Positions 28,700 to 60,439 of a stretch of 64,000 nucleotides of DNA are shown here, piece after piece. Under the pieces are notes generated by a model. It did no database searches. It saw nothing but the letters and a program-made list of their open reading frames with translations, and was not told where the DNA came from. Numbering within the stretch: the first letter of the stretch is position 1; each line of letters opens with the position of its first letter. Both the position numbers and the translations under genes were made by a program. Source of the DNA: Mesotaenium endlicherianum (taxonomy: Eukaryota); the NCBI GenBank assembly GCA_009602735.1, contig WELA01002297.1, positions 62,001 through 126,000 of the forward strand. Direction: 5' to 3'.

Positions 28700-28729
<30 letters not shown>
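27698..28729 (+). pseudogene. Chromovirus gag (one in-frame stop at 28289-28291)
   Basis: PKPEVYTG..AGAWY..QFQP; PVPMELG; CCHC knuckle CYSCGKLGHLARDC. Confidence 0.9.
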
Positions 28730-32271
<3,542 letters not shown>

Positions 32272-32427
32272 NNNNNNNNNNNNNNNNNNNNNNNNNNNNN
32301 NNNNNNNNNNNNNNNNNNNNNNNNNNNNNNNNNNNNNNNNNNNNNNNNNNNNNNNNNNNNNNNNNNNNNNNNNNNNNNNNNNNNNNNNNNNNNNNNNNNN
32401 NNNNNNNNNNNNNNNNNNNNNNNNNNN
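32272..32427. other. Assembly gap (N run)
   Basis: Run of N covering the PPT and the start of the 3' LTR. Confidence 1.
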
Positions 32428-35400
32428 ATTTTTGTGGTCATTCTGATATAACGTTCATCGAATTTGCTCAAGTATTGAGAGAGTTATGGATTTCCGAAGT
32501 TTAATTAGTTTTGAGGTCGGTTGACGACTGTCCTTAATTCGCGGTGAGCGCGACCGTCGGATTGACCGACAGCGTCGAGCGATCTGGCCCGTTAGAATGA
32601 ACTCGAACCTTCACGTAAGTTCGGCTGACGCGGAGTGCCGACTAGGTCGATTTACCTAGAAGTTTCGGTTTAGCCTAGCGCGTCTAAGATAGAATATTCT
32701 AGTAATGTCGATGCATGTATGTGGACGTCAATTCGGCCCGACACGTCAGATTAGACTGATCTGGCTTTCTCACGAATAATCTGGAAGGGACGATTTGACG
32801 AACACTTAGGAAAATCCGTAGCTTCCTCCTAGGGAGGAGCACTTAGGCAGAAAATTATAAATAGGCATAACTTCTTTGTTTCTTATTAGTTTTCACTTCT
32901 GTAAACTCCTACGGGTTTGTAATGACAAGGCCTTTCATCCCACATCATTTGTGAGCAGTTTCATGCCACTCAAAATGTCAAGTAATTTTCCTAAGCTTTC
33001 TTAGCAATATGCCGCTGCACTCTTGAGTATGATTGCAACTAGATTTGTTCCTCGTGAGTCACTACGCTTCCACTTGGGCACTCTGCCCCTTTCATCTTGG
33101 GTCGTCAGCCCGCTCAGATGTCTCGCTATGTCGTGGACTCTGGCTTGAATCAAAGCCTTCCACAGGCTCCACGGGATGATAGAGTCTCCCACTCCTCAGC
33201 CGCATATACAGCTGAGTTTCCCCGGGTCCCCTTCCAGGTTGACCACCGGCAAACCTTACAGGTCTCAATCCCCAATTTGCTTGGGAATTCTTGTTCACCT
33301 GAACCAATCAACAAGTTCTCAGAAGTAGGACGGAAGAGTCTTGCTTCCACATAGGCTTACGCCCAAGTTGAGGGTAACAAAATGAACAAATTTGTGGCGT
33401 ACAGAAATCACGTCTAAGCAGCTTAACAAACAATGCCAGATTCAGAGAAAATCGCCTTCGCGACTTTCGCTTAACTTTCACAAGTCCCAACTTACAAAAT
33501 CCTAAAACTGCACATTCATGCTGGCCTGGTTTGAACTCTTCGCCCAACACCGCGTCTCAGCAGTTCTTCACTGCTTGGCTAGGCTGACTCAGTTCTTCAC
33601 TGAGAGCTCAACTGCTTTACTGCTCTTGCTATCAGCAATTCGACTTATGTGCGACTTCTGAGAATTTGGGACTAACACAATTACTCACCATTTTATATGC
33701 TCTTCGCAAACTTGTGGTGTTTTGTCCAAATCTGCGCTAATCTCCTAACAGATGCTATTTTGCAAGTTCTCTTCTGTCTACCAACGAGATTCCGCCTTGG
33801 GAACTCCTGAATCCTAACTTTATATGGTACAGTGCAAAGAGATCTTCAAGTGTCGGCAGCCGCGTGGATTCTCCGTTCTCTTGCGCCCTTGGGAACTCCT
33901 TCTCTTCGCGCTCCTTCTTCTTTCTCCTTTCTGCTCCTGCGCTCCTTCTGCTTCCTTAGCAAAGTTGTGCACGCAAGAATGAGGCAGCTTCGTGTAGGAC
34001 TCGTGCCTTTTGTAGGCACCACACATTGTTCTCTCTCAAGAATGCCAGTGCTTAATTACAGCTGGCCTTGCATGCCGTCCTCACCTAGCAGCTCTCAACT
34101 CATCCTAACACTGGTCACTTAGCTTGCATGCATGCCTCGTGACTATCGCGCGTGACTGCTCAGCCTTTTGGCTGGCAATTGTGCTTATATGGCTGGTGAC
34201 TGGCTGCGTACTCGTGGATCCAGCCAAATTGGCATTTGACTCCTCTACTGCATCTCGGCAATGACTTGGCTTGCATAGCCAATCACATCGTGCCTGACTT
34301 GGCACCCTGGGCTGCTCCCCGCCCATAGCCTTCCGGCTGACCCTTTTGACAAATCCCTTCCCATCCCTGAGTGTGGGGACTGACATACCATGACCACTTC
34401 TCAGTGACCATGACGTTGACTTGCCCGCTGGTTGACCTGACATCAGCCTTTGGTCGGTAAGTCAACGCTGACTTTTTTGTACTTGAGCGGCCGTGAGTTG
34501 CGCTGCGCGTGCGGCATCGTCAAACGAATAGCAGTCGCGACACCTTTTTTCTTGTGCAAAAGGACGTTAGTGATGAGATCATAGTGAAAGGTGGCAAGAT
34601 GTACATGGCGTTTGGGGATGTGAAGGATAAAAACAGAGTTAGCATTGACATCAACACCATGTATGAGAGGGTGGGGCATTATTGGACGTACAAACTTAGA
34701 AAGGATGGTGGAAGGTATCCGAATACGGCTTCTGTCCTTCTGCACATGGTGAAGTCAGGGAAGTATTATCCTCGTACCCACCATATTACACAAGGCGGCA
34801 GTGTCGTGCCTAACAGTGTCGGACCCTTGGCACGTGTGTAGCTTCTCAGCACGTGTGCCTTCGACCTGGTCGATGTGTCGGTGCGTCTCTGCACGTGGGA
34901 AATCCCCTGGGTTGATCGACCTTCGCACGTGTGTCGGCGGCAGACTCTTTGGAGTAGACTCATTTCTGGTCCTCCTGCACCTCATCATGCAAGTGCAACA
35001 TCCAAACGTTTTAGTGCTTCCCACTCAACCACTTAATCTCTTCAGCATTCTTCATGCTTAACAGAAGTTTCAAAAAGTTTGCCTATCTTCAATCTCCCTT
35101 ACAAAGACGAAAGAGTCTTACTTCCACATAGGCTTATGCCCAAGTTGAGGGTAACAGAATGAACAAATTTGTAGTTTGCAAAAATCACGTCTAAGCAGCT
35201 TAACCAACAATGCCAGATTCAGAGAAAATCGCCTTTACAACTTTTGCTTAACCTTCACAAGTGTCAGCTTACAAAACTCTGAAACTGCACATCTATGCTG
35301 GCCTGGTTTGGTCTCTTCGCTCAATACCGCGCCTCAGCAGTTCTTCACTGCTTGGCTAGGCTCACTCAGTTACTCACTGAGAGCTTTAACTGTTTAACTG

Positions 35401-36522
35401 CTCTTGCTATCAGCAATTCGACTTGTTCGCGACTCTTGAGAACTTAGGATTAATACAGTTACTCACCATTTATATGCCCTTCGCACACTTGTGGTGTTCT
35501 GTCCAAATCTGCGCTAATCTCTCAACAAATTCTATCCCGCAAGTTCTCCTCTGTCTACCAGTGAGATTCCACCTTGGGATCTCCTGAATTCTAACTTCTA
35601 TGGTATAGTGCAGAGAGATCTTCAGGTGTCGGCAGTGGCGTGGATTCTCCGTTCTCTTGCGCCCTTGGGAACTCCTTCTCTTCGCGCTTCTTCTCCTTTC
35701 TCCTTTCTACTTCTTTAGCAAAAACTACAAACGCAAGAAGGAGGCAGCTTTGTGCAAGACTCGTGCCTTTCGCAGGCACCATGCATTGTTCTCTCTGGAG
35801 AATTCCAGTGCTTAGTCACAGCTGGCTTTGCATGCTGTTCTCGCCTAGCAGCTCTCGAACCAATCTAGCCATTGTCACTCAGCTTGCATGCAGGCCTCGT
35901 GACTGTTGCGCGTGATTGCTTAGCCTTTCAGCCAACAGTTGTGCTTATGTGGCTGATGACTGGCGGTTTTCATAGCCAATCAAATCGTGCCTCGGGGCTG
36001 CTTCCCGCCCGCAGCCTTTCGGCTGACCTTCTTGGCAAATCCCTTCCCATGCCATGACCACCTCTCAGTGATCATGACGTTGACTTGACCGCTGGCTGAC
36101 CTGAAGACAGTCTTTTGGTCGGTGAGTCAATGCTGACTTTCCGTACCTGGGCAGCCGTGACTAGCGCTGCGCGCGTGCGGCAGCGTCAAAAGGGTAGCAG
36201 TTGCGACAGCTGTCGTGCCTAACAGTGTCGAACCCTTGGCACGTGTGTAGCTTCTCAGCACGTGTGCCTTCGACCTGGTCGATGTGTCGGTGCGTCTCTG
36301 CACGTGGGAAATCCCCTGGGTTGATCGACCTTTGCACGCGTGTCGGCGGCAGACTCTTTGGAGTAGACTAATTTCTGGTCCTCCTGCATCTCATCATGCA
36401 AGTGCAGCACCCAAACGTTTTAGTGCTTCCCACTCAACCACTTCATCTCTTCAGCATTCTTCATGCTTAACAGAAGTTTCAAAAAATTTGCCTATCTTCA
36501 ATCTTCCTTACACCCCTCCCTT

Positions 36523-39500
36523 TCAGCTTAGGCGTCCCTGCCTTTTTGTTGAAAGCTTCTTATCTCCTGTTCTGCGGCTAGGGGTTTGAGGAAGGCTGTC
36601 AGGACATTCCCAACGTCCTGCCATAATCTCCTCTTCACCAACGCAGAAAGTGTGCCAACGGGCACCACACTTATCGCAAGTTACCATTGCTTCTTGATCA
36701 TCCAATACTTTGCAACTGGCAGAAGGCATGGCCGGCACTAATTCCTCAGGCACAGCCCTAACCGTAGGACCAACATTCGGCAAATGGCACAGCGAGCAAT
36801 TCTGCACGTGATCTCTCATATTCTTGCCATCAGAACCTTCCAGTTCTAACACACCATTGTCCAATGCATGTTTCACGCGCAAGATCACTGCACGTGAACT
36901 GGTGTCGATGGTGGTCTTGGTCTGGCGCTTGCGGTAGACAAAGTCTCCTTCCTGGATCTGCGTCATTTGCAGGCGACAGCTCCCATCTCGCGTCTTAACG
37001 TAACGTTGCGTGTCTCTTTTCTGCGCAATTCTCAGGTTGTCCAGCGCGGCAGGCATCATGCGCTCAAATAGCACCTTGCGGCGTACCATCACCCTTAACA
37101 ACTCATCAGGATCGTCCAGGTTTTTCACCATTTCAATTTCCTGCTTGATGCTGCTGGGTACAACTGGACTTCTTCCAAACAGAATCTGATATGGCGAGAA
37201 ATTCGCCAAAGCTACTTGCTTGCTGAAACGGTAGCCCATAACTAGCCATGGTAGGGCCAGATCCCAATCCCGCTTGTCATGCTCAAGGCAAAACTTGCGT
37301 AAGGCAGACTTAATAGTTTGCACCGTCCGTTTTGCTAGACCATCTGCTTGCGGGTGGTCTCTTGATGTAGTGTGATGATTAATGAAGCATTTTTCCAAGA
37401 GTTTCTAAAAAGACCCTTGGAACTCAGACCCTTGGTCTGTCAGCACTTCTGCTGGAGCTCCATGACGCACAATCACATGGTTAAGGAATGCCTCCGCAGT
37501 CCCTAAGCTTTCCTTAGCGGTAGAGGAACGACCTCTATCCACTTAGAAAAATGCTCAATCATGACCATGATATACTTGTTACCTTGCTTGGACAGCGGTA
37601 GCTCACCTGCGAGATCGCAGCTCCAGCAATAGCCTAGGCCCATGATTGGCAAAGGTTGCAGGTGTGAATGTTGCTGTGTAAAACCAGCCTTGACCATATC
37701 ACATCTTTGACAGTCCTTGATCACATCTTCACACTGTTGTTTCATACCCCTCCACCAATAAGACAGCTCTAGAAGACTATATGTCTTCTTGACACCATAG
37801 TGCCTAGTGTTTTCATGCATTTCCTGCACGAGAGCTCGTCTCTTGGTAGGTTCTGGCACGACCTTCTCCTGTCCAGTTTCTTCAACTCTGAAGAGGTTGT
37901 TGCGTTTCTAGCAAAACCTTTTAGCGCAATGACTTACTTGGTCATTTTCTTTCAAGGATGTCCCCTCCAGATGGGTCCCTGTTTTCAACCAATGCATAGT
38001 GGCTTGATCTTTCCAGATCTCTGGACTGAACAACGGTAGGGGCTCAGCTTCACTTGACGCTACTATTCCAGCCATTTCGGCTAGACAAGCTGCCAACTCT
38101 GCTGAATTGCTCGGGTCTTTGTCTTCTCGAGCCCCTGTTCGGTCCTCTGAAGATGGGTCTGGGTTCCTGCTAAGTCCATTGGCGTCATTGTTAAGTACAC
38201 CTGCTCGGTGCACCACCGTCATCTAATACTCCTGAAGCTTAAGAGCCCAGCGAGCCAGCTTGCCGGTAAGATCTCCATTCTTCATCAGCCAAAGTAATGG
38301 CGAGTGATCTGTAATCAGCGAGAAAGGTCTTCCCCAAAGATACTCTCTGAAATGTGTAACAGCCCAAACCACTGCCAGCAGCTCTCCTTCATAGGACGAA
38401 TAGTTGCTCTCAGCTCGGTTGTTAGAGCGAGATGCATAGGCAATGACGTACTCCTCCCTTGGGCTTGCAGCTTGAGTGAGTACTGCGCCAATTCCTACAC
38501 GACTCCAGTCAGTGTTGAGGTTGAACGGCTTAGAGTAGTCAGGCGTTTGCAAAACTGGGGCTGTCACCAGCCTCTTTTTAAGCTCGTTCATGGCCTTCTC
38601 CTGGGCTTCTGTCCACACAAAAGGTACGTCCTTTTTCAGGAGTTCCTGTCAAGGGTTTAGCAATTCTGGTATAGTCCTTCACAAACTTGCGATAATATCC
38701 ACTTAGCTCTAGAATAGCTTTAAGCTTGAACACATTCGCAGGTGCAGGTATCTTCAAGATATCCTCAGTCTTTACAGCCTGAGGGGACATAGCATTGTTC
38801 CCAATCTCAAGTCCTAAGTAGAGCACGTGTGCCTCAAAGAACCTACACTTTCCAGGATGTAGCGTCATCTGGAATTTCTCCAGGTGCTGGAACACTTGCT
38901 CCAAGTGCTCGAGATGCTCTTTAATGGACTGGCTAAATACCACCACATCATCAATGTATGGTTTTGCAAAATCCAGTCCTTCTAGCACTTTATCCATTGT
39001 CCTCTGAAATATGGCAGGGGCATTTTTCAACCCAAATGGCATTAGTGTCCATTGCCAAAGTTCCCTTTGAGCCCAGAAAGCGGTCTTAACTTGATCTTCT
39101 GTGTTCACAGGGATCTGGTTGAAGCCTTGGCGCAGATCGATGATGCTGAACACCTTCCCGGTGGTGGCAATTGCGAAGATTCGCTCTGGCGTAGGCATCA
39201 CATAGCTATCTGGCCCCTTGTGAAGGTTCAGTCGCCTGTAATCTCCACACATACAAGTGGCAGTATAGTTGCCAGCTTCGTCCTTCTTAGCGACTACTAC
39301 TGTGGGAGCCCAATGCACTGAAGTTGATTTTTCAATCATGTGGAGTTTGTGCAACTCCTGGCAGGTTTTCTCCACACAATCCATTCTGCCTGACTGAGCT
39401 TATGCGGCCCAAGTCTGACTGGGTTATCCGTAGTTAGCGTGATTTCACACATACTGGCCGTGGTTCTGCCAATCTCCTCCTTAGTAAAAGCAAACACCTT

Positions 39501-39554
39501 GCGGTGCTTCTTGAGCAGCCTTTCTACTTGAGCTCTTTGTTGGGCTGAGACCAT
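36523..39554 (-). pseudogene. pol of copy B: RT, RNase H, DDE integrase, PHD finger (fragmented)
   Basis: ORFs 39336, 38578 (YIDD), 38223, 37908, 37503 and 36523 (HPQADGLAKRTV..CDKC..HTFC..WECPD). Confidence 0.93.
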
Positions 39555-41546
39555 TTTCCCAATGGTAAAAATCCCAGTTTCAGGCTGCTTTTCCCCAACA
39601 AAAGCGTCCAGTAGTTGCTACTCCTTGGGTTCAGGTGGGGGCTTTTTGCCCTCATCCTGGCCCTCAGGGTTTTCAACTTGATTGCTGGGTGGGGAAGTAG
39701 CAGGCTTCTCAGCTTGCTCCTCCTGTTGCTTAGGCTCTGCTGCCCGTTTCTTCATTCGCTTTCCCTTGGAAATAGACGGACGCTTCTCTGATGGGTCGGA
39801 AAATACCAAACGCCTTCTGATGGGCTGTTGCCGGAATCTCCGCTCATCGTTTGCTGTCCAGCTGGTGCCTGTTCCTCCTACCTCTCGCTGTGGGCAAGGA
39901 TTCTCCGGTGGCCATCCTGCTGGGTCAACTCTGGGGCTGATGGACCATCCCCAGTGTTGATTTATTGTAGCAAGGCGCTCGACCGTTGTACCAAACTCTT
40001 CTCCAAGTGGTGGCGTGATGGCCCATGACTGATGACTCAGCAACTGTTGTCGTTGTGCTTCAGCAACTCGCGCGTACACAGCATTTTTTGGTGTCAGGCG
40101 GCTTATAGTGCTTCTTAGCTTCACCAATTCTTTCTCAGAAACCGCTGGTGTTGAAGGAGCTGAATCATTCTTTCCCTTCGTTCCAAAGGTTGGAGAACGA
40201 GCCATAGGAATGTTAATTCCCAGTTCTCGGGCCCTGCGGTTCAACCCTTCTTCACTTCCTTCCGCAGTATTTCCATAATGGGTTGTGGCGGTGGGGCCAT
40301 AGTTCCTCTCGGAACTCCTTCCCTCTGGGCCACTCCTCGATGCTTAAAATAACGCATCACCATCCTCCTGAAGGGTGCATTTCCCTCGCGGGCCACTTTT
40401 CTTGGCCTGCTTGCGCGGCCTTGTGGCTTACCTGGTGTATGCTCCATCTTAGCAACGCAAGCAGATACCTCTGGTGGCAGCCGTTGCAGCTCCAATGGTG
40501 GTATCTCAGGGACTGATATACTTGCGATTGGCGTGCTGGATGTTGGCGAGCATAACTCCTGATATAAATCAGTTGGGTGCGGCCCCTCCTCATTCAAGTG
40601 GTTTGCCACCCATTTGTCTGTCCTCAGGTCCTGTAGGTTTAATTCAGGAGTAGGGAAGCGAGGAATTTCTTCCCCTTCACCATCTTCAAGGGTGAGCGAT
40701 GGTAAGTCAAACTCAGGTAGGTCAAGCAGTCTTGACTTGGCCTCCTCTGTCCCCTCCACTCCTGGTGGCTGTGGCTCTTCATCGCTTCTTGTATTAAGCT
40801 TTGCCATGGTGATGATGGCTGACTGCAGCGCTTGTGTAGCTTGGGCGACCTCTTCTTCCTTGCGCCAGGGTGCATCTGCTTCCAGCAGCTGCTCCATAAT
40901 CTGCCTGGTGATAGACTCAGCAGTATGACAGGCTGATCCTCCTGGTTGTCCTTTGACCTTTGGCTCTGGACTCAGCAAAAAATTTTTGGGCAATTTCTTG
41001 TCCAGATCTTCTTTGCAATCTTCAATGATCACCTCCAAACATATCTTTTTTGCAGACCCTCCAGAGTCACCTGACTTTTCACTGCCTTCTTCAGCTCATT
41101 CTCCCATATAGCATGTTCGCTCATTGCTTGCTGGGTTGGTTCCAAAAGACTCCTCTGGTATTCAGTTGAAATAATCTTCAGTCTTCTCTGGTGCTCCAGA
41201 ATAATTGTCTGGATGTGCTGGTTCCAAAGAGGGCTCTTTGTGCCGTCGATGGATCTCCCCTGTTTCTGAGTCTGCTCCATAGAAGCTGCTTCCAAGCCCT
41301 GGACAGGATGATAAACATTGCTGTCCATCTTCCCAACTGCTCGAGTCCTCCTGCCAATAGTCACCTTCTCCTCTACCCCTCGGGCTATAATCAGGATCCT
41401 CCTCTGGACCTTCACTTTTCAGTGAGCCCTCAAATATGATTGCCATAACCAAATCTGATCAGACTTGCTGTTGCTCAGATGCCTTCTCAAGGACTTGCAC
41501 CTTATCCTTAGCGCTTGCTGGTGTAAGCTTTTGCTCCACTTCCTCA

Positions 41547-43235
41547 CTAGATAGTTGTCCTCCATCTTCCCCATGTGCCTCTTCTCCATCCCTGAAGAAA
41601 GATGTGGAGATCATTTGCAGTTGATGAGGGTAGCTCATAGTCCTGCTCTTCTTTAGCCAGACAAATAAGGATTTTGTCCTCCTCTGCTGCTGCCATTTCT
41701 GGCAATGGCGTCCCAAATATTTGACTGCGCGTGGCCTTTTTCAGCCAAGATGACGTATCACCTTCCACACCTGGCGGTGGTGTCGGTGCGTGAGGCGCCT
41801 GCTCTTCCATGGGCACATCTATTTCTTCAAAATGTGCTTTTACCTTTGCAATCTGGTTTTCCAGCCGCTTCTTCACTTCACTGCACCTTGTCAATTCGGC
41901 CATCCCGGCTTCTTTGCGTGCAGCTCTGGTACTCTGAACTCCTCCTTCCGCGATTCTGCGTTCTGGGAGCCCTTCCTTTGGCAGTTGTGCTCTCCTGCCA
42001 GCCCTCTGATCTGAGGTAGGCACCACATGTTCTCCAATTATCATCACTGGTGGCTCTGGCATAGGCTTGTGAGTGGAAGTCAGTTGTTGCCATGTCATAA
42101 TAATTTCTAGGAGCCATGTCATAGTATGATGCCCAATCATATTGCTGAAGATCTTTGCAGCTTCAAGTTGTCCTACAGCACTCACAATTGCTTGTACGAC
42201 CCTTTTTGGAACTCCCAAACAGCATCCTTTCTCCATGGCGTATGGCTCACGCCATTGTGCTTCTGGGTTATTTTTGTTCTTGACCAATCCTGGCCCTCCA
42301 TCAACAAAAGCTCTGGACTCTGGGAATGCTGTGAAAGTCGGCAAAACCCCCCTGGGTTGCCCTAACTCATTGACAGCACACCGTGGGTAAACATCATCTC
42401 TGGTTACCGATTTAGTGAATAGCCCCAGTCTATACCCCACGGTCTTGGCATCCAGTGGGCGCCTGATGATCATCCCCGTGGCTCTCGCCACCTCCATAGG
42501 TATGCCATTTGTCCATAAAATCCTGGCCATGTGTGATAGCCCTCCATATTTGGCATCATTGATCAGCACGTGATGACCCAATATTGAATCAAAGATTAGC
42601 CATGGCTCTCCTGGCTTCATCTGGCTGTAGTCATGACCCGGGTGCATGTTCTCAATCACAAACACTGGTGGATGGCGACACTGACGTTCCCGCAGCAGCC
42701 TGATGATGTCCACCATTCTTCCCCAATACTGTGCCCGTGGGTCATTGAATCCCCTCCTGTTGCCAGCTTGAGAGAAAGGTTGACAAGGGAATCCAGCAAA
42801 GATCCAATCAAACTTGCAAAGATACAAGTGCTCAGGCTTCACCTCCAAAATATCTCCTCCAGCTATGCGCTCTATGTGCTGTGGCGCAGGTACCAAATTC
42901 TTGAAATGGTACATCTTTTGCATATCCTGCATAGCAGCTTTGAAAGCTGTAAAAGCATTGTCGTCGTTGTCCACATAGATGACTTTGGATACCTTGATCC
43001 CCCGCTGAATCAGAGACATAGTCCCAGATTCCAATCCAGCGAATAACTCCAGCACCACTACTCCAATTTCGCGAAACGGATTCGCCATTTGAACAGTAGC
43101 TTGAGGCAATGGCTCCACTCCTGGCATCAAGTTCAACGAGCTTGTCACTGGATAAGGCACTGGAAGCAATTCTCGCGGACTGCGATCCATGTTGCTCATA
43201 GTTTCCAGCTGACTCATAATCTTGGGTTGCCACAC
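41547..43235 (-). CDS. Retrotransposon-encoded C5-cytosine DNA methyltransferase (domain ~42110-43065 uninterrupted)
   Basis: VVLELFAGLESG, IFAGFPCQPFSQAG (catalytic PC), FVIENM, SHMARILWTN, WREPYAMEK..LG, KIFSNMIG in canonical order within one 562-aa ORF. Confidence 0.93.
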   Translation of the reverse strand: MWQPKIMSQLETMSNMDRSPRELLPVPYPVTSSLNLMPGVEPLPQATVQMANPFREIGVVVLELFAGLESGTMSLIQRGIKVSKVIYVDNDDNAFTAFKAAMQDMQKMYHFKNLVPAPQHIERIAGGDILEVKPEHLYLCKFDWIFAGFPCQPFSQAGNRRGFNDPRAQYWGRMVDIIRLLRERQCRHPPVFVIENMHPGHDYSQMKPGEPWLIFDSILGHHVLINDAKYGGLSHMARILWTNGIPMEVARATGMIIRRPLDAKTVGYRLGLFTKSVTRDDVYPRCAVNELGQPRGVLPTFTAFPESRAFVDGGPGLVKNKNNPEAQWREPYAMEKGCCLGVPKRVVQAIVSAVGQLEAAKIFSNMIGHHTMTWLLEIIMTWQQLTSTHKPMPEPPVMIIGEHVVPTSDQRAGRRAQLPKEGLPERRIAEGGVQSTRAARKEAGMAELTRCSEVKKRLENQIAKVKAHFEEIDVPMEEQAPHAPTPPPGVEGDTSSWLKKATRSQIFGTPLPEMAAAEEDKILICLAKEEQDYELPSSTANDLHIFLQGWRRGTWGRWRTTI

Positions 43236-43429
43236 AATGGCGCTGGCATGTTGATGCGGGTGTAGGCCGTCTCCTCGCTGATCATATAGTTGTTGTAAGC
43301 CTCTGGATAGTCAGTAGTGGCGCAGCAGTCCAGCATCTTCTGATCTGTTTCTCCTGAACAAACCATTTTTACAGGAATCTCTCCTGCTGGCTGCTTATCT
43401 GTCTGCTGGTAGGTCACTTTCTGCTTCCG

Positions 43430-45855
43430 CAAATCAATAACATGCCCAATGGGATCAGTGCTTCTGGCCCCAGGAGAATATCATAATTCTCTGCATCAGT
43501 TACCGTGCATTCCATCCATAGTGACGCCTCCTCAGGTTTCCCCGAGTTTACTGTGATCTTCACAGGCTTGCGGGTAATTCCACAAGACTTTGTTACCTGC
43601 CTTGATGCCGTTTTCAGCTAAAATGGGCTCTCTTTCAGATCCCTAGGTGTCAGACCCAGAGCTTTCACAGCTCGCTTCCCCAGGATGACTGGCTGTGCGC
43701 CTGTATCCAGGAGGATGTTGGGGGCTGGCCAATTGTTGAACTTCATGGCACCATCCTTGTTCTGCACCCTCACAGTGCTGAAATTGGTAGGCAGCGAGGC
43801 GCTATTGGCACCTTCCTCAGCTGTATCCAGCTGTTGTCCGGCTTCTTCAATCGTGAAAGGGTAAGTAATGTGCAAATCAACGAGAGAAATCAACGGAGCA
43901 TGCTGAATTCGATATTCCACCAGAGCTCTCAACTTCTCCAAAGAAATACTAAATGTCTTGCGATTCTGGCCTGTCGCTGCTGGGCAATTTCATTCTCATC
44001 CAGGGTAATCCGAAAGGTCTGAGGAAGCTTCCCAGCGTTCCTAGGCACCAATCGGTCATGATCTGCCCTCTCAGCTGCTGTTGCAGTTACAGCCTTCTCA
44101 GGCACCAACTTCCCTAGACAATTTTTTCAGCGACATCTGCATCATAGTAGTCATTGGGCGCTTTTAGTTTTGCAAATTGAGCTTTCAACTCAGCAATCTC
44201 AGCACTCATAGCATCATACTTTTAATGACCCTTGCGGTTACCGAAATTCTCCTTTCCTTTCTTTTTACCCTTATCTGCTTCTTTCGTAGCAGCGTTAGCC
44301 CATGGTGGCTTTAAATTCGGGTTCTTAGACCAACACTCATCTTCTGAGTGTCCCTTCTTGCTGCAATGTGCACATATCTGCGCCTTGTTAGCAGACAGTT
44401 GCTTAGCATCAGGATAAGGACAATCTCTCTTCCGATGTCCTGATTTCCCGCAATTCCAACATCCCTCTGCTGTTTCAGCAGTGTTGGCATGCTTAGCAAA
44501 CCTATTGAAAGACCTGCTCTTCTTTTTGAACTGCAGATTAGAGCTATCGGCCTTAGGCGGAGAAGATTCCTCCCTCCTCTCTGGCGCCATAAGCGTCCTA
44601 GAAGCCTCCTTATACCAGACTTTACCTTCCTCGACACAACGTGCTATCTCAGCAGCTTCGCCGATATCCCAGTCGATTTCGCGCTTGGCAGATAGATGCG
44701 GCCTGACTTCTCGATCTGTGTCTTTGCCCAAACACAACAATAATTTTTCAGCCACTATTTTGGGCTCGTAGATTCCTGCATTCTTGGCAAGATCCACCAG
44801 TCTGGACTTAACCTCCATCACTGTCTTGTTCTTTTGACGAACAAAGTGCACACAGCGGTGCACCTTGAGATTGCGGTCCTCTGGGAACTTGATTTCAAGC
44901 AATTTGAAGAAACGACGCAGACAATGCTCAGCATCCAATTGGTCATTGCGAGCTTCCATATCTTTACGGCAACTGGCCAACGCTTGCGCATGGCTTGACT
45001 TTGTACAGGCACTATCGCCTTGCTGACCATTAAAAGGTGCTGCTCTGCGCGTTACTCGCTCCTGAGCATTAGCAATCTTTTCAGACAGCTCTGCACACAC
45101 TCTACGCAATTTTGCGACAGATCCTTCATCATTCTCCTCAGTAGCCGCTCTTTGCTGACCCTCAGTGAGGTGTGTCATGGCATCTACTAATTTTTGTGTT
45201 AGTGCAGTTAAGTCTACGCTCCCTAGCCTTCTTTTGCTCTCCAAATGCCCATTCCTGAGTAAGGTCCTCATCCTTTCGGAGTTGGCAATGAAGCAACAAG
45301 GCATCCTTGTCCAAGTATGAAACCAGACTTATAAACGCAACAAATTGAGTATATGAGGAGTCCTTCCGGATCTTCTCAAAGAAATCAGCCCAGTAGATTT
45401 CATCAAACTCTTCGAAAGTGAGACTGTTGCCACCGGTTCGTCCACTAAAGCACTTGGTAGACAACTTGAACTTAGGATTTTCATCCCTCTTATCACCAGC
45501 CACCTCAAAAGGTGACCAGTAATCACTGACTCTTACCCCAGCGTCTAGCGTTTTGCCCAAACCAGGTGCAAGATAACGCTCGCTATACGGGTTCCACGTT
45601 TGCAGAGATTTGTCGAGCAGCGTCTCCCGACGTATGGTCTCTTCTTGGGTCGTCAACCCGCTCAGATGTCTCACTATGTCGTGGACTCTGGCTTGAATCA
45701 AAGCCTTCCACAGGCTCCACGGGATGATAGAGACTCCCACTCCTCAGCCGCATATACAGCTGAGTTTCCCCGGGTCCCCTTCCAGGTTGACCACCGGCAG
45801 CCCTTACAGGCCTCAATCCCCAATTTGCTTGGAAATTCTTGTTCACCTGAACCAC
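43430..45855 (-). pseudogene. gag (two CCHC knuckles) and aspartic protease of copy B
   Basis: CWNCGKSGHRKRDC and CAHCSKKGHSEDEC in ORF 44222; ILLDTGAQPVILG in ORF 43618; frameshifted. Confidence 0.88.
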
Positions 45856-45862
45856 TCAACCG

Positions 45863-45876
45863 AAGTTCTCAGAAGT
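45863..45876 (-). promoter_or_regulatory. Self-priming primer-binding site (Tf1-like)
   Basis: ACTTCTGAGAACTT directly follows segment A and is complementary to the sequence ~29 nt after the TATA box in A (46205-46218, one mismatch; exact in copy A at 9758-9771). No TGG tRNA-type PBS at the boundary. Confidence 0.75.
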
Positions 45877-48306
45877 AGGACGGAAGAGTCTTACTTCCAC
45901 ATAGGCTTATGCCCAAGTTGAGCGTAATAAAATGAACAAAATTGTAGTTTGCAAAAATCACGTCTAAACAACTTAACCATCAATGCCAGATTCAGAGAAA
46001 ATCGCCTTCACGGCTTTCGCTTAACTTTCACAAGTCTCAGCTTACAAATCTATGAAACTGCACATCTATGCTGGCCTGGTTTGAACTCTTCGCTTAATAC
46101 CGCGCCTCAGCAGTTCTTCACTGCTTGGCTAGGGTCACTTAGTTACTCACTGAGAGCTTTAACTGTTTAACTGCTCTTGCTATCAGCAATTTGACTTGTT
46201 CGCGACTTTTGAGAACTTAGGACTGACACAGTTACTCACCATTTATATGCCCTTCGCACACTTGTGGTGTTCTGTCCAAATCTGCGCTAATCTCCTAATA
46301 GATTCTGTTCTGCAAGTTCTCCTCTGTCTACCAGTGAGATTCCACCTTGGGAACTCCTGAATTCTAACTTCTATGGTACAGTGCAAAGAGATCAGGTGTC
46401 GGCAGAGGCGTGGATTCTCCGTTCTCCTGCGCCCTTAGGAACTCCTTCTCTTCGCGCTCCTTCTCCTTTCTCCTTTCTGCTTCTTTAGCAAAAACTGCAA
46501 AAGCAAGAATGAGGCAGCTTTGTGCAAGACTCGTGCCTTTCGCAGGCACCATGCATTGTTCTCTCTCGAGAATGCCAGTGCTTAGTCACAGCTGGCTTTG
46601 CATGCCGTCCTCGCCTAGCAGCTCTCAAACCGATCTAGCCATTGTCACTCAGCTTGCATGCAGGCCTCGTGACTGTTGCGCGTGATTGCTTAGCCTTTCA
46701 GCCAACAGTTATGCTTATGTGGCTGATGACTGGCGATTTTCATAGCCAATCAAATCGTGCCTGACTTGGCACTCGGGGCTGCTTCCCGCCCACAGCCTTT
46801 CGGCTGACCTTCTTGGCAAATCCCTTCCCATGCCATGACCACCTCTCAGTGATCATGACGTTGACTTGACCGCTGGCTGACTTGAAGTCAAGCTTTTGGT
46901 CGGTGAGTCAATGCTGACTTTCCGTACCTGGGCGGCCGTGACTAGCGCTGCGCGTGCGGCACCGTCAAAAGGGTAGCAGTCGCAACAGCAGGGCTGTTAA
47001 GTTGGCGAGAGACGAGTCGATGTTCATCATGTTGGCCCGGCCACAAGACACAAGGATAGAAGACGTGTACCGTGTATTTTTGAACTATGAGGGACCTATA
47101 TCTGACATGCGTGGCGGCAAGTATTACAATGCGAGGGGGCCAGTGCTTGGCGAAGCTGAAGGGAATTTCGAGACGCCTGAATGTGGACGCAAGGCACGGC
47201 CATCCCGAAGGACAAGTACCTCAGCCCTCGATTCCTGAGATAGACATGATTACTTAGTAATTTGTGGCGCTTGTGTCTTCTGTACTGTAGCAGTATTAGC
47301 CAGCCACTCTCGCGATGTTCACAGACGCAATGGTTGCAGTCACGCTGCAGTACAATTTCGATGCAGTTTCAAATTCATGGTGACGGTTTTTGGGTTTGGT
47401 GTCGATGCCTTTGGTGTTTGTCATGTAGTGGTGTCGATGCGATGCTGTCGTGCGATGTCGTCTTGTGAGGGCCAATTCGTCGCCCCTTCACAAGATTGAA
47501 AATCCACACTGATCGAATATGAGAGTAGAACCAATATGTATGGTAGTTTATTGTCGTCAGTAAGGCGCCCCTCACGTAACTCTTGTGAGGGGGAATTCAA
47601 TAAGGCCCTTTGCTCGTGTGAGCGCTGGCCCGTACGCGTTCGAAATCGGAGATTTGCCACGCGAAAGCGTTCGTCGTGAACGCTTTCTCTGTGCGGCCCC
47701 AGTGCGGCCCGCCCTTTCGCGACCGCCATAAATTAGGGCTTGGCCATAACTTATTCCTCTTCGCTTTTGCTGAGGGAGTGCGTCCTTAGGGCGCTTCTCG
47801 TGAGCGGCCATGGCGAGGAGGAGCGAGGCGGAGCCTCGCCTGGGCCGCGAGGTAGCCCGCCATGGGGTCGTGGGAGAGGGTGCTCTTCCTCGCTAGCAGG
47901 GTTCGTGGGGTGGAAAGGTCGGGAGCGCCTGCTGCTGGGCAGCCATGGCCGCTCGTCGTTGCAGGCGGCCATGGCCGCCTGCCAGTTATGAGGGTGTTAG
48001 AGAGAGAGAGAGGGGTTAAGGGGGAGGAGGCATGGTGGAGGGAGGGAGGGAGGGAGGGTCGTTAGCGTCGACGTCGAGCGTCGACGGCGTTCGCGCTGTT
48101 TTGACGCCTTAATTTGTCGCGATCGTTCGGCGGGTCTGTGAGGGGATGACAACATTGAACGAGTATGTATGGTAGTTTTTTGTATGATGGTTTATCAGTA
48201 TGAGAGACGAGTGTTGATCCACACCAGAACGGAACAATACATACCGAGGTACAGAAATCGCAAGCGTGTATTTTGCGTTTGTAAACAAAAAGCTTTTACC
48301 GCTCTT

Positions 48307-51300
48307 ATGGACAGGATGTCGTACGCGACGTCAAAGCCGGGCCACTCACGCTTGCTTGGGGGGCTATGCGTGTTATTACTGTTGTTTGCTTTCTTCACAA
48401 GCTTTAAATGTGCAGTCAGACAGAGGGTAGAAGCACCGAACGAGTTAACAGATGGTACAGTTGGAGCCCAAGGTCTCTAAGCTTTTGCCACCGCTTTATT
48501 CCACAACCGCTGATGCTCATTCATATCTCTAGCTGATTGCTCTCAGTTCTTACGATATCTCGCCTCAGTGATTGAGTCATTAGAAGAGCACTCACCCGGT
48601 TTGTCATGAATGCAGACTCCAACATCGCGTACGCCGATCTTCGGTGTGGGAAGAGCTGCGAGGACACCTGCTATGAGCAGAAACGGAGAATTTTGGTAAT
48701 GTTAGCATTCAGAAGCTTATAGTAACTCGAAAACTACATTCTTGTCTTGCACATGTACTTTTAAGATGCCCTTCAAGTCTCACGTCGTACGTCCTCGTGA
48801 CTGGTCGGGCTGTTAGTTCGCGCCAAGTGAGCTGATGAATGATCCAGTCAAGCATGTGATTGCAGGACTTTGCTCCTTCAAGCAGCAGCTTACGTGGGCC
48901 TGGAGCAAGAGCTGTGCCAGTCGCATTCCCTTGGTTTTCATATCCAGTAAAGGACAACGTATCTGTCATAGGACCTGGCCAGACTCCTCTGCCTGCCAAC
49001 CTTCTTGGCCGCTTCATGGGAGATGGAGATTATGTTTGGGAGTTTGAACGGCGGGACTCCGGGAACTACAGGTGTTATGTTAGTCATTGAATGGGCTCCT
49101 GAATTCAGCTGCAGCATTTGTCAAAGAACTCACTTATACGCCCTCTTCGTCGTCACGGCGCATTTCTCACTCGACCACTTATCTGGGGCATCTCTGCAGC
49201 ATTCTGCACAACGGAGAGCCTCTTGTGACATACACCATGCATCCAGACTCGAGCTTCTGCCCGGAGCCAATGGTCAACTTCGAGTCCCGATACAGGTACG
49301 CCGTGCCTTCCTTTCCTGAAAGGGCAATTTGTAAGAATCCTGGCTCTCTACTTGAGACATGCGAGGCTTGTTGTCACGGCGGGAGACGTGTGGACGTCTG
49401 ACTTGCTGGTGCAGTGACCAGTTCGAGTGCAGGTGCAAAGCTGAAGCAGTGCTAAAGTGGGGGGTGCAGATGCAAAGCCGAGGACGCAGACCGCATAAGG
49501 CTGGCCACAGCTCGCTGGCCGGATCGCTCTGTCACTGAGGAGATGTACGACAAACTCGGGGCCCAGGTGACTTGCGCTGTCGTCAATGCAACCTGCTCTG
49601 ACGCTCTTGAAGCCCCTTCTGAATAGTGACACTGGCTCAGAGGACAGTGTTAGTATCGGGGCCCGGAATCTCGTGGCAATGCATGCAGTCTGGCACAGGC
49701 CGTGTCCTCCGCTAGTGAGAATTGAGATATGAAGTAGTGTTGCCCGGTTGTGCACTTTGCAGGGCAACTTCACGCACTATGCCATCATCAACAACACGCT
49801 GTATCGCCGTTTCCCGGCTGATAACGTCCCCTACCATGTGGAGCTGGAAATCTTTCTGCTTGCACTACTGCGGAAGGTGAAGCTTCCTGACTCAGAGTTT
49901 GCTTTCAACGGCGCTGATAACGGCACAGCGTCTCTGAGGTGGGTCCATGAGGGTGCACAGACCCTCCCACATGCCGCTGCTCGGGCAGCCCGCTTGCGTC
50001 GAGTTGCGACGAGATGTCATGCGACTGGCGGGCTTCCTGGCTGGTTGGCTGGGGTGCTAGAAGCCCTTGAAGCAGTGCTGTTGCCCCCTCCCCTTCCCCT
50101 CTCCCCTCCGCCTCCCGTTTCGTCATTTCCAAGCCTCTGATTTTGTGCAGCTCTGACGGGCCACCGACGCTTGCGTTCTCGACAAAGGAGGATGACATCG
50201 ACATTCGAATACCGTCCGGCTACTTGATGTGGTACCTGATGCATGGCACCTTCATCAAGGTAAGGGAAAAGGCCTCCATGGTGTGCGAGGCCCCCTACTG
50301 CAGCTGCGGAAATCCCTCTGAGGAGTCTCTACCAGGAGGGCTGTGCATATCCATATGCCTGTCTGCGTAGCATAGTGGAGATATCGACCCAAGGCTAATG
50401 CGTGAGGTGTCAGCCTGACTACTGTAGGGTCTGAGGACGTCTTGGTCCTGTAGGTCATACAGTGTGTGAAAAACATGTCATGTCCCACTGTGACTAGCCT
50501 TTGGCTGGAGTGCAATGCCGTCTCGTAGCCTGAAAAAGTAGGCGTGGCTGACATTTCACCATCGCCCCGTCGCAGCCCCCAGCCGCCGCCGGTGCAAGCG
50601 GAGAGGCCAGCTCGCCCGTGGCCAGATGAGCTTGCACTCAGCTTGCTGCAGCTTGCATGGTGGCCGGGGAAACCTGCCACTGTTCTCTGGAAGCCTCCGC
50701 CACATGTCCCATTCCTAGATGTGGGTTTGCGTTGTGGATTTGGAGCTGCAGGGTGCTGCGAGCCTGAAGCCCTGGTCAACCCGGGAATCCAAGTGCTACT
50801 TCGTCGGCACCAACAGTGCCTTCGTGTATGTCTCTCATCCCAGGCATTTCTGGCTCACTCCACGCTTCCGCGCGGCCATGCTGGCGAAGGGTCACGAGGA
50901 CATCCTGCACGTCAAGGTCGTGACTGGCCACCGGAAACATATCACAGACGTAAGCACGCGCTTTCACGAGAGGGGACTTGCTGGGCCTGCTTGCATGGGC
51001 ATTTCCTTCTCCTGCCTGATAATTTATGGTCTGTCGCTTCTTCACCTCCACCCGTGACAGGTGTCACATTCAGCGGTTCAAGCGATTTCTCATTGCCACA
51101 GCTAGCTTCCAGCAGCTCTCCGCTGGTCCTGGGAAGGGGGGAGCTGCGGTGATACTAGGGGTCATTCTTATGCAGCGTGGTCACCTCCTCCCCTGGCAGT
51201 GATGGCGTGCCAGACGCGGCCTGTGAGGGGCACACTTCTTGGTTCCATGCGCTCCATGGGCAAGACTGGATTCCTGGTGGTGACGAGAATCAACGAATGT

Positions 51301-52789
51301 GCTGTCGATGCACCCCAGCCAGTCGGCTGTCTGGGCTGCACGCATGATCTCTCACCGGCTCGACTGGCTTGACTTCTGCATATTCGGAGTCATTTGTTGC
51401 AGGGACCTCGTGATGGCACCTCCGTGCCTTCGCCCGTAGCTCATAGGTGCAGCACGGGGGACTAGGCTCGAGCATCCATAGGTGCAGCTGCAACACCGGG
51501 CAAGGTTGTGGGTCCCAGAGGGGGACCTGACTCTTGTTTTGGCTCGATCGTGTCTCTGAGTTGTGCAGGAGGCTGCAGCTGCAGCTCACAAGCTGAATTT
51601 GACGACAGAATACTTCCCATCCCGTGCGGCGGAGCACAAGTGCCTGCTCCATATGGACGGGAACTCGGCGTCGTGGCGGATGTCACGCGAGATGGTGGAG
51701 GGCCACGTGATTGTGAAGCAGAAGTCGCCGTACGCCGAGCACTTCTACGAGCTCCTGGAGCCATGTGTCCACTTTCTAGAGGTGCGCCCTGCACTCGCTG
51801 GCACGTGGGATGCGGGGGTTGGGCCAGTGCCACGATGCATATAGTGGTCTCAGTATCCTATCCCAGATAGGGGAAGCTCAACCCGTACTGGAATGAAGTG
51901 TCTGCTTCTTTTCCCCCCCTCGTCTCCAGCGTGATGTAGCAGTCACGTCGTCTGTGGATGCAAGATAGGGGGTTTAACGGTTCTGGTTCTCCTTCGTTCA
52001 CATCATATGACAACACGGTTCTTCGCAAGGCCGTTGAGGCAGTGTCTGGCTCGAGGTAAGCTGTGTACTCACGTGGTGAGTACTGCTCTCATCGTTGATG
52101 GTGTCAAGACCTTTTTGTATCACCTCCTCGTCACCTCGTCATCCGTGCCCCCCTCGCAAAGCAGGTCCCGCTCACGCTGGGATCTGAGCTTCAGGCCTGA
52201 AGCTGTACACGAGTTGCAGAGTGGTGTTAGACGTGGAGGTCTGCAGCATAGCGCTCGCCTCTGTCGATGTTATTGTTCAGTGGTAATTGATTGCGGGCAA
52301 AAGCCTCAAGCCTCCCCGTGGCCTGAGATCGCACCCTGTCGAAAATTTGTGACGTGCAAAGTGCCTTGGAATCATGTTATCAGATGGAGCATTATATGGG
52401 GGATCTTGTCGCCAAATCTAAGTGGGCGCTCACGCATGAGAAAGTGTCGAGGGAGATAAGGGACTCAGCCTTCAGCTTCGCGATGTCGGTATGTCTTCTG
52501 TACTGCCCATCTCGCTCTTCTTGGGCGACAGTGTTAGCTTGGCTGAAATTGACAAGTTTTTTATTGTGGTTGTGTGTTCAGTAAGTATTGACGAGTTTGT
52601 TTGTGGATGGGTGGGGCTCCTTGTGCCTTGCAGAGGCTCGTGGAGGAGCAGGTGATGTGTTACATGGCATTTGTGCTGAACGCACTCAGTAAACTTTCAG
52701 CCTCTCCGGTGAGATTGAGGGACAATATGACGCATGTGCCCGATGAAGGAATAGCCTCGGCACCCACATGTATGAGTATGGATCTTTGA
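48307..52789 (+). CDS. Multi-exon glycosyltransferase family 90 (CAP10 / POGLUT2-3-like) membrane protein; exon limits approximate
   Basis: N-terminal hydrophobic anchor LLGGLCVLLLLFAFF. Exon peptides: SSLRGPGA.. (filamin-like), HYAIINNTLYR..LLRKVKLPDSEFAFN, PTLAFSTKEDDIDIRIP, PWSTRESKCYFVGT, HKCLLHMDGNSASWR..YAEHFYELLEPCVHF, DLVAKSKWALTH, VMCYMAFVL. GT-AG borders visible. Confidence 0.85.
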
Positions 52790-53510: not shown

Positions 53511-54757
53511 GTTGGCAATTTGTGTTCAAATTGCCTGATTTCGAAAGAAAGAAGGTGATATTAAAAAGAATAGTAGGAGTAGTAGTATGCAACAAATTGC
53601 GCGTCATCTGTTCTTGTCTAGTCCTTTTCTACATGCTGCTTCGCTTATCTGTACTTGACTAATCGATAACAATACAAAGAGGTCAAAACAACTATGTTAC
53701 AACTCCTAACCAACACTATGGATTGGCAGCTGCATTCTTGCTCTGTTGAGGTTGTTCGTCGAATCGCCGCCGTTGGTTACTACTAATCGACAAAAACATA
53801 TTGTAACACTAACAAACAACAAACACCCTATCGTGCATGGCGAAGACTATTGCTGGCACCAACTTCGTTGCCCGCCTCGTGCCTCTCCCAGTGGATTGAA
53901 GGGTTAGAGGGGTGGGTAGGTGGGTATGTGTAGCAACTACCTTCCTGCTGCAATGAGGCTTCTTTGCAACAAGAAGCCTTATGAGGGTTTCGTTTGTCAA
54001 TGAGACACAACACGTGTGAAATCGATCAAATTTAAACACTTTGTCAAACTTTGAAATGTCGCAAACCTTCAATTTGCGACAATGTCGCAAACCAAAGTTT
54101 GACAATTTGTGTTCAAATTGCCTGATTTCGAAAGAAAGAAGGTGATATTAGAAAAAATAGTAGGAGTAGTAGTCTGCAACTAAAGTATGCGACTTTGGTT
54201 TGCGACATTTCATGTCGCAAACCTTCAATTTGACAAGTGTTCAAATTTGATCGATTTCACACGTGTTGAATTTCATCGTCGAACGAACCCTCATAAGGCT
54301 TCTCTTTGCAAAGAAGCCTCATTGCAGCAGGAAGGTAGCTGCTGCACATACCCACCCACCCACCCCTCTAACCCTCCACTTCACTAGGAGGTGCACGAGG
54401 CAGGCAACGAAGCTGGTGCCAGCGAGAGTCTTAGCCATGTTCAATAGTGTTGTCGTTGTTGTTAGTGTTGCAATATGTTATGTCGTTTGGCAGTACCCAA
54501 CGGCGGCGATTCAACAGACAACCTCAGCACAGCAAGAGTGCAATTGCCAATCAATAGTGTTGCTTAGGAGTTGAAATACAGTCTTAATATAGTCTTAACC
54601 TAGTCAAGTAGTATAAAATAATAACTCGTTGCAGCATGTAGGCAAGGAATAAACAGAAACAGATGACGCCCAAAGTTGTAGCATACTACTACTCCTACTA
54701 TTCTTTCTAAAATCACCTTCTTTCTTTCGATCAGGCAATTTGAACACAAATTGTCAA
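53511..54757. repeat. ~1.25 kb foldback inverted repeat (arms ~53511-54095 and ~54190-54757)
   Basis: CAATTTGTGTTCAAATTGCCTGA at the left end pairs with TCAGGCAATTTGAACACAAATTG at the right end. Internal matches include GCTACCTTCCTGCTGCAATGAGGCTTC-like (53935-53965) versus its complement (54313-54340). The spacer holds a direct copy of the left terminus. Confidence 0.88.
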
Positions 54758-56922: not shown

Positions 56923-57008
<86 letters not shown>

Positions 57009-57009
57009 N

Positions 57010-57055
<46 letters not shown>

Positions 57056-60218: not shown

Positions 60219-60439
60219 ACCCCCTTACTTCCAAAGTAGTCCGAAACGGATGGTCGTGCACCACTGCCCAGGACGTGCGTGCTTAGGCCAACCTACTATC
60301 GCAATCTTATTGCGCTTTTACCTGTGACTTTTAAGACTCGTACTCAAATCGAAATCGGGAAATTAGAAATTGGAGAAACTTGCAAATTGCTTTTCCCGAT
60401 TTTAGAGGGCGAAAATAGAGATACCATGTGCCTTCTCGT

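Follow-up and report, generated by a model that had tools for sequence, protein, structure and literature searches.

The 64,000-nucleotide stretch of Mesotaenium endlicherianum DNA considered here (contig WELA01002297.1, positions 62,001 to 126,000; hereafter the window, in which positions are counted from the first letter) carries on its minus strand, at 34802-46987, a 12.2-kb retroelement with a C5 cytosine methyltransferase domain in its polyprotein. We call it copy B, copy A being its 5'-truncated sister at 780-10404 on the plus strand, 91% identical to it. Copy B starts with TGTTGCG, ends with CACGACA and lies between two copies of CTGC (46988-46991 on the 5' side, 34798-34801 on the 3' side), so that both its TG..CA termini and its 4-bp target-site duplication (TSD) are as in Ty3/gypsy elements. 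The order protease-reverse transcriptase (RT)-RNase H-integrase, recognised by Pfam and by comparison of the copies, is also that of Ty3/gypsy. The element does not have one full long terminal repeat (LTR) at each end, as that group does; its repeats are split and permuted, in the layout A1-coding-B1-A2-B2.

Repeat A1 (45877-46987) contains a TATAAA box (46242-46247), and the predicted RNA 5' end, which would also be the self-primer, is at 46205-46218; the primer-binding site (PBS), ACTTCTGAGAACTT, lies at 45863-45876, immediately 3' of A1. Then come gag with CCHC knuckles (44222-45328; zf-CCHC E 1.4e-5) and an aspartic protease (43443-43899) interrupted by one stop and one frameshift, which was positioned from the D[ST]GA motif and Pfam, with LDTG at 43710-43699 and an Asp_protease_2 match (E 3e-4) under the curated cut-off. 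The DNA methyltransferase (DNMT) domain follows at 42075-43079, within the frame 41547-43310. A long acidic, low-complexity linker (39500-42074), which matches no Pfam family, leads to RT with a YIDD motif plus RNase H (38150-39499; RVT_1 E 8e-29), broken by three frameshifts, to a broken DDE integrase with an H2C2 finger (36900-38140), for which the Pfam matches rve and Integrase_H2C2 were obtained on the corresponding part of copy A, and to a C-terminal region with a PHD finger (36572-36899; PF00628 E 1.7e-5, exceeding the cut-off). The linker, a stretch of about 870 codons that most relatives lack, lengthens the space between DNMT and RT by ca. 2.2 kb, to 2829 nt, and is under mild constraint (ratio of nonsynonymous to synonymous divergence, dN/dS, of 0.54 between copies A and B). 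The polypurine tract (PPT), GAAAGGGAGGGG, at 36513-36524, is immediately 5' of repeat B1 (36211-36512), which ends in CACGACA, and at the junction of B1 with A2 (35104-36208) there is a palindrome, CACGACA-GC-TGTCGCA (36202-36217), taken as an internal attachment (att) site. Repeat B2 (34802-35103) closes the element, the A2/B2 boundary being the predicted join of two cDNA ends.

An earlier note made from the letters alone had described a C5 methyltransferase inside gag-pol at this place, and the domain is real: the frame 41547-43310, stop-free over 587 codons, matches Pfam DNA_methylase (PF00145) with E 2.6e-17 and 63.7 bits against a cut-off of 22 in the profile search that the note had proposed. 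Of the full motif set reported there, motifs I, IV, VI, VIII, IX and X are all found in order, with IV (AGFPCQ, including PC) and VI (IEN, including EN) intact; the damage reaches further than motif VIII, to motifs I and X. Motif VIII reads HMAR in copy B and HRAR in copy A, as had been noted, Met replacing the first Arg (98% conserved over 142 relatives). In copy B, motif X reads SNM, with Ser for a Gly conserved in 97% of the same relatives, and motif I reads FAGLE, with Glu where they carry a small residue or Gly. With these changes and the frameshifts, the suspicion that copy B is impaired was well founded. The implied better state of copy A, in which the same domain was indeed found at 1355-2346 (plus strand), did not hold: it has three stop codons in the domain, where copy B has none, a 10-nt gap, Arg in place of the motif I Gly (98% over the 142 relatives) and Pro in place of the Ser after motif IV (100%). 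Over these relatives the catalytic Cys is conserved in 100%, the motif VI Glu in 99%, the motif VIII Arg in 98-99% and the motif I Gly in 98%. Motif IV in 54% of the relatives (P0004-P0157) reads GWECQ and not the canonical PC, with the catalytic Cys kept.

A search of the PDB with the domain alone (phmmer) gave M.HaeIII and M.HhaI, both at about 3e-5. A family profile built from the window domain and 74 of the shorter phmmer hits found DNMT3A best (E 1.6e-24), ahead of DRM2 (2.5e-10) and HhaI (4e-10). A structure predicted from the family alignment reached a pLDDT of 89.5, versus 32.9 for the single-sequence model, and in Foldseek the top 24 ranks listed for it were all DNMT3A/B/C. Since profile and Foldseek both put DNMT3A/B first, ahead of DNMT1/CMT, DNMT2 and HhaI, the domain is, judging from its sequence family and modelled fold, a DNMT3-like, unrearranged C5 methyltransferase. 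A DRM-type enzyme was rejected by the motif order, with I first and X last, and by the restriction of the DRM2 match to profile positions 61-200; DNMT1/CMT was rejected as well, none being among the 56 PDB sequences matched by the profile. The earlier note had recorded neither the affinity to DNMT3 nor the PHD finger, nor that the repeats are split and permuted.

Relatives of the domain are numerous. With phmmer, 1.84 billion cluster representatives yielded 1191 matches at E<0.001, 161 of them at E<1e-10, the best being 31% identical to the window domain. Word-based searches with the single domain found no homolog among 887 candidates in long proteins, and a second set gave two bacterial-type methylases among 1970 candidates; three window proteins had no exact match in the protein collection. 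At least 79 of the 150 top protein clusters carry the DNMT domain in a retroelement polyprotein, and in 72 of 80 related metagenome loci with flanks (55 of 62 distinct ones) it lies upstream of RT, so that the earlier view of the capture as rare is not sustained. These loci were found by a pattern from the RT motifs of the lineage (113 loci, 80 with flanks), which selects one sub-lineage, and they appear to stem from few hosts; in six of the 80 the upstream sequence is too short. Their DNMT-RT distance is mostly about 620 nt. Named relatives are limited to Closterium sp. NIES-53 and NIES-54 (two of eight hits); these and the taxa of the ESM Atlas matches point to a streptophyte host, and the GC content of 49% with compact spliced genes would be in keeping with a hornwort.

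Among 152 rows, RT/RNase H precedes DNMT in 59, DNMT is followed by integrase in 15 and DNMT precedes RT in five, while in 73 none of RT, RNase H and integrase was matched; a protease motif stands shortly upstream of DNMT in 12 rows of the enlarged set. Pfam searches of the best 36 relatives found RT/RNase H or integrase in 21, and PHD in many. The single open reading frames P0071 and P0155 join DNMT with gypsy domains in one frame. The RNase H-DNMT-integrase form makes up one clade in the RT tree (SH-aLRT 99; 100/99 in a careful 31-row RT tree) and in the DNMT tree (96). The protease-DNMT-RT forms, the window element among them, fall outside that clade, and therefore one capture followed by one later move of DNMT within the polyprotein would be the simplest reading of these trees, which were rooted on a distant outgroup and contain long branches, the DNMT tree being without host DNMT3 rows. 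From its sequence distribution, with retention across hundreds of clusters at <50% identity and survival of a move within the polyprotein, the capture is old and widespread. In one row, P0147, DNMT precedes the protease, RT belongs to a different gypsy lineage, and an N-terminal stretch by eye resembles an adenine methyltransferase (HPPY, NPPY-like); this may be a case of independent transfer of the DNMT, similar to the EpiLTRs.

Copies A and B are both dead. They differ by 1-nt indels near positions 43554, 43443, 43236, 43175, 40256, 39383, 38868, 38643, 37522 and 36570 of copy B and by longer ones near 42627, 41611 and 40444, the copy carrying each indel being assigned from the open frame. 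Two of the 1-nt indels, those near 43443 and 43236, sever the DNMT frame of copy B from the protease, and other indels sever it from RT. Hence the statement that the domain is inside gag-pol, between protease and RT, is right as to position and for the family (P0071 and P0155) and not for copy B as it stands. Copy B is an old insertion, since A1 and A2 have diverged by 5.6% and B1 and B2 by 3.3%. The comparison of substitution rates across copies that had been suggested gave, between A and B, a dN/dS of 0.37 (0.24-0.57) for DNMT, an interval that excludes 1 and does not support neutral evolution, and values of 0.46 for RT plus RNase H, 0.45 for integrase and 0.71 for the PHD region. In 21 distinct metagenome copies, drawn from 27 with a one-frame domain match, the median pairwise ratio was 0.36-0.44 for DNMT and 0.21-0.27 for RT (pairs not independent). 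Variants common to at least three of these copies had a ratio of nonsynonymous to synonymous polymorphism (pN/pS) of 0.41 (0.31-0.57) in DNMT and 0.24 in RT, private variants of 0.73 and 0.42, respectively. These ratios indicate that the DNMT domain was formerly under purifying selection.

The split repeats are not a peculiarity of one insertion. Self-comparison showed A-coding-B-A-B in both copies B and A, and the B1/A2 junction, where the two ends of the element meet, reads CACGACA-GC-TGTCGC in both. The PPT adjoins B1 and the PBS adjoins A1. The PBS, ACTTCTGAGAACTT, is the reverse complement of 14 nt located 29 nt past TATAAA in A; the complementarity is 14/14 in A2 of copy A, 13/14 in A1 of copy B and 11 contiguous positions in copy C, a partial copy described below, and the best of 440 control 21-mers reached 12, below 14. 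A distant metagenome family with unrelated repeat sequence has A-coding-B-A-B and att in seven complete loci. Its B starts with ATAC directly after a G-rich tract, its B/A junction is CACGACA-NN-TGTCAT, and its PBS, which differs in sequence, is matched by a complementary segment some 30 nt past TATAAAA, a match that is clear in L022 and L027 and obscured in the others. The att pattern was found in 18 of 38 3' regions and in none of 114 control windows, and a PPT before B1 in 29 of the 38. TSD matches in five distant loci were 4/4, 4/4, 3/4, 3/4 and 0/4. Seven of the 11 A2/B2 joins listed are modal and the remainder deviate by +1, +1, -2 and -2 (overall range -2 to +2 nt); the join in copy A keeps two PBS bases. 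Contigs aligned across the A2/B2 junction have no indel at it, and contigs of related subfamilies retain the PBS and an A/TGTAAG join (loose ends). A form with a single B occurs in 19 of the 38 loci. It was rejected as evidence of a 1-LTR-circle product: L027 (B-A-B) and L038 (single B) share insertion site, flanks and TSD (CCAA), and therefore recombination or assembly collapse explains the single B, at least there. Standard LTR finders would miss such elements because their ends are not paired LTRs.

With the PPT at the start of B1 and the PBS at the end of A1, the cDNA should in the standard scheme begin with B and finish with A; the true LTR would therefore be B+A, with the att pair inside it. 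From this anatomy it is likely that the lineage integrates by cutting a palindrome inside the repeat and not at its cDNA ends. Transcription would start inside A1, ca. 29 nt after the TATA box, and the first 14 or so nucleotides of the RNA would anneal to the PBS and serve as the primer of reverse transcription, in the manner of Tf1. The cDNA so made would be [B+A]-coding-[B+A], with ends that lack att sites. Integrase would then open one B+A repeat at its internal palindrome, cleaving each strand of CA-GC-TG 3' of the CA and leaving two CA-3' ends with 2-nt overhangs, and these processed ends would be inserted. The natural cDNA ends would be joined to each other either before insertion, in a 2-LTR circle or concatemer, or after it, yielding A-coding-B-A-B. 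The junctions of IS3-type transposon circles offer an analogy for such a circle-like intermediate. The DNMT, once the protease has freed it from the polyprotein and it has been packaged alongside RT and integrase, could methylate the double-stranded cDNA or circle, probably at CG, before or at insertion, and the PHD finger is a possible chromatin reader.

Our reading is that copy B is a dead Ty3/gypsy copy with a DNMT3-like domain between protease and RT, a PHD finger after integrase and the layout A-coding-B-A-B, and that in active ancestors the enzyme probably methylated the element's own new DNA copy. This last step is plausible from the place of the domain in Pol, its conserved catalytic residues and, by analogy, the activity of SymbioDIRS-Dnmt3 in yeast. 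A more far-reaching proposal, which we put forward tentatively and would not bet on, is that of a large and old streptophyte gypsy clade whose att sites are no longer at the cDNA ends, having shifted to a CpG-containing palindrome within the LTR; integration would be circle-like (cf. IS3 and DIRS), the DNMT3-like enzyme would be kept to methylate the intermediate, perhaps at the palindrome, while PHD reads chromatin, and a single capture would have been followed by a jump from protease-DNMT-RT to RNase H-DNMT-integrase.

A number of observations weigh against this reading, and some of them speak for other explanations. In both copies A and B motif IX is EKGC, where relatives have E-R-E at 92/88/92%, and motif X has Gly for an Asp conserved in 93%, and the branch of the domain is the longest in the DNMT tree (1.71), so the enzyme of this family may have drifted in sequence. 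The CpG observed/expected ratio is 0.70-0.82 in the terminal repeats and 0.41-0.66 in the coding region, that is, the repeats, which had been called CpG-rich, are only less depleted; in DNMT-less elements of the window it is 0.19-0.29 (two copia) and 0.49 (one gypsy), and relative to these neighbours there is no extra depletion of the kind that self-methylation would leave. The domain of KnitGypsy-Dnmt3, a similar element, had no activity in yeast, a result that its authors call inconclusive in the part of PMC5890265 concerned; together with the missing CpG footprint it weakens the cDNA-methylation step. All this would suit a domain kept, at least in the fast-evolving family of the window, for a non-catalytic or non-cDNA job, such as binding of DNA or RNA, or methylation of target-site chromatin or of host silencing genes, as would the EC in place of PC in motif IV of more than half of the relatives. 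We hold it to be fairly unlikely, as the near-invariant Cys, Glu, Arg and Gly are what catalysis requires and the SymbioDIRS-Dnmt3 domains do methylate CG in yeast, according to the same part of that paper. Alternatively, a DNMT captured once might by now be neutral or on its way out, a passenger or relic whose presence says nothing on function. Every copy seen is decayed, and two relatives, L014 and L037, have RT and no DNMT match within reach. In one DNA run the summed word depth was 155-434 over the linker and the C-terminal half of DNMT, far below that over gag and also below the 14,000-32,000 over RT-integrase, which is not a copy number; therefore many relatives in the genome differ strongly in the linker and DNMT C-half or lack that part, at least as a hint. 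Further against our reading, in three RNA runs bearing the same species label, of each of which 6-24% was read, 15, 69 and 31 reads fell on the element and none over 39074-44281. In the metagenome set selection, real as the ratios suggest, constrains DNMT less than RT, and the DNMT values of 0.37 (dN/dS) and 0.41 (pN/pS), both inflated by decayed copies, are below 1 and yet above the figure for KnitGypsy-Dnmt3 (Ka/Ks < 0.2 in the relevant section of PMC5890265). For the lineage, however, a passenger is largely refuted and very improbable: the dN/dS intervals exclude 1, and the domain has been retained through deep divergence and through its move in the polyprotein.

The proposed route has its own difficulties. 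If the circle were used symmetrically, the mirror form A-B-A-coding-B should occur as well; among the 21 loci that have a 5' A, 16 of them distinct, there is none of this form, and therefore the left att must be preferred. As to minimum-energy folds, primer and PBS pair in that of copy C (z -0.73) and not in that of copy B. The layout, which is formally that of DIRS/PAT elements as set out in the figure legend of PMC5890265, might, in view of the missing mirror form, have arisen without internal-att integration, by DIRS-like template switches giving a linear cDNA that ends in att or by tandem events after insertion, and the pair L027/L038, in which a single B is derivable from B-A-B at one site, indicates that a layout can be altered once the element is inserted, or by assembly. 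We regard such an origin as improbable, given that in each of two repeat families without kinship the PPT falls precisely at the B1 start and the PBS precisely at the A1 end, so that the cDNA ends are pinned to these points under the scheme described in the pertinent part of PMC7175516, that a single TSD brackets the whole unit, and that no tyrosine recombinase was matched by Pfam in the 29 of 47 long window frames scanned, those of the element included. Several matches would fit acquisition of the domain from a DNMT3-like methylase of bacteria or phages instead of from host DNMT3: the halves of a prokaryote-looking relative, P0117, score 84 and 83 bits against the family profile versus 89.8 for DNMT3A, of the ESM Atlas clusters the top two consist largely of viral sequences (Uroviricota), the third being Streptophyta, and there is one phage match at E 1e-11. 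Yet DNMT3A/B is still the best by profile score and fold, and de Mendoza et al., in the section on K. nitens (PMC5890265), group the domains of that alga with Dnmt3, so that a prokaryotic source is unlikely, although it deserves serious consideration.

Other members of these lineages lie in the same window. Copy A has its B-A-B repeats at 8663-10404 (plus strand) and is interrupted by a solo LTR of another family at 4617-5361. Copy C (25551-34542, minus strand) retains A1, PBS, 5' untranslated region and gag only and is split by an ordinary gypsy element (26994-33097, plus strand; LTRs 2.2% diverged) with no DNMT match; an assembly gap of Ns at 32272-32427 is inside this nested gypsy. A second, distant DNMT-bearing gypsy family is represented at 13632-15663 (minus strand), with the C-terminal half of its DNMT at 15193-15663, 475 nt upstream of the RT motif, and identities to copy B of 55% in RT and 25% in DNMT. 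Its 5' part is lost; upstream there are a gag-like stretch, a copia insertion (15951-21359) and a gag-like frame (21363-21851). A solo A-B unit of a diverged relative (60440-61930, plus strand) has the same termini, the conserved A/B join and a near-TSD, TCGT/TTGT. The copia at 15951-21359 (minus strand) is near-intact, with LTRs 2.8% diverged, a pol frame of 1063 aa and a CpG observed/expected ratio of 0.19, and a related copia fragment is at 11436-13273 (plus strand). A 745-nt LTR-like repeat occurs three times (37-782, 4617-5361 and 63016-63760), one copy lying in the linker of copy A with an AAGAG duplication and another truncating the 5' end of copy A. A self-inverted element of 1.25 kb, 77% complementary and resembling a miniature inverted-repeat transposable element or a foldback element, is at 53512-54757. 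Two probable spliced host genes occupy GC-rich sequence at 48600-52000 (plus strand) and 55600-60224 (minus strand); by eye we take them to encode a glycosyltransferase-90-like protein and an FkbM-like methyltransferase, and their exon-sized frames have no Pfam match.

The anatomy of copy B and its relatives suggests how a retroelement with a DDE integrase could replicate without using its cDNA ends, a route that lends itself to testing, and a long-lived double-stranded intermediate would be a natural substrate for a captured methyltransferase. That DNMT capture had been reported in dinoflagellates and a charophyte is borne out by de Mendoza et al. 2018 (PMC5890265), whose pages on KnitGypsy-Dnmt3 of Klebsormidium nitens describe the closest likeness: a Gypsy domain set, an intronless and unrearranged Dnmt3-like domain in Pol under purifying selection, and DIRS-like A-coding-B-A-B repeats (legend of Fig. 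4c). The window element comes from a different host and has the order protease-DNMT-long linker-RT as well as a PHD finger, which those pages do not mention for KnitGypsy-Dnmt3; nor do they contain an account of its TSD, PPT, PBS or an internal att. Capture and repeat layout are thus already published there, and what the window element adds is a new architecture and a proposed integration route of an unusual kind. SymbioDIRS-Dnmt3 and SymbioLINE-Dnmt, for which the corresponding passages of PMC5890265 report de novo CG methylation in yeast, are alike in having Dnmt3 in Pol and, in the DIRS case, split direct repeats; they use tyrosine recombinase or LINE machinery in place of a DDE integrase and represent an independent capture. 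Assignment of the window element to DIRS/PAT was rejected by the rve and H2C2 matches and the lack of a recombinase match in the frames scanned. The EpiLTRs or DAM-LTRs, as presented in the portion of bioRxiv 10.64898/2026.05.21.726589 that deals with them, are likewise gypsy-like and combine a cytosine methyltransferase with a chromatin-reader domain, but they have a DAM domain, a chromodomain and a DNMT sister to DNMT4, whereas the window element is DNMT3-like with PHD; no DAM domain or chromodomain was matched by Pfam on its frames, and this identity was rejected too. DNMT3 retrotransposons of 'streptophytes' are mentioned in sections of PMC12344493 and of the same preprint, and a wider host range may be known to the authors of both.

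For the integration route the nearest comparisons come from elements without a methyltransferase. Tf1/sushi and plant Tcn1, in the parts of PMC7175516 and PMC6317226 that treat priming, share self-priming by an RNA 5' end complementary to the PBS; they have ordinary LTRs, att at the cDNA ends and no DNMT. HIV-1 and foamy virus integrases can cleave the internal palindrome of a 2-LTR junction (PMC1905944 and PMC1180852, in the experiments concerned), which resembles the cut proposed here. There the palindrome is the join of two cDNA ends and its cleavage restores a normal provirus; in the window element, unlike these viruses, it lies inside the repeat and the permuted insertion is the rule. Troyka, as characterised in the relevant part of PMC12440569, is another LTR retroelement with unusual ends, although with CG..CG termini, a 3-bp TSD, ordinary LTRs and a range restricted to animals, and it was rejected by the TG..CA ends and 4-bp TSD of the window element. 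Neumann et al. 2019 contains neither 'methyltransferase' nor 'PHD', and a literature search, with subscription journals outside its scope, turned up no paper describing an internal att or two architectures; the combination of a PPT at B, a PBS of the self-priming type at A and an att palindrome inside B+A is unexplained in the literature found. DNMT-bearing gypsy elements had previously been described, in the section of PMC5890265 on K. nitens, from one alga with 33 DNMT genes; here they appear as an old and diverse clade with two polyprotein layouts, two distinct families of which lie within one 64-kb window.

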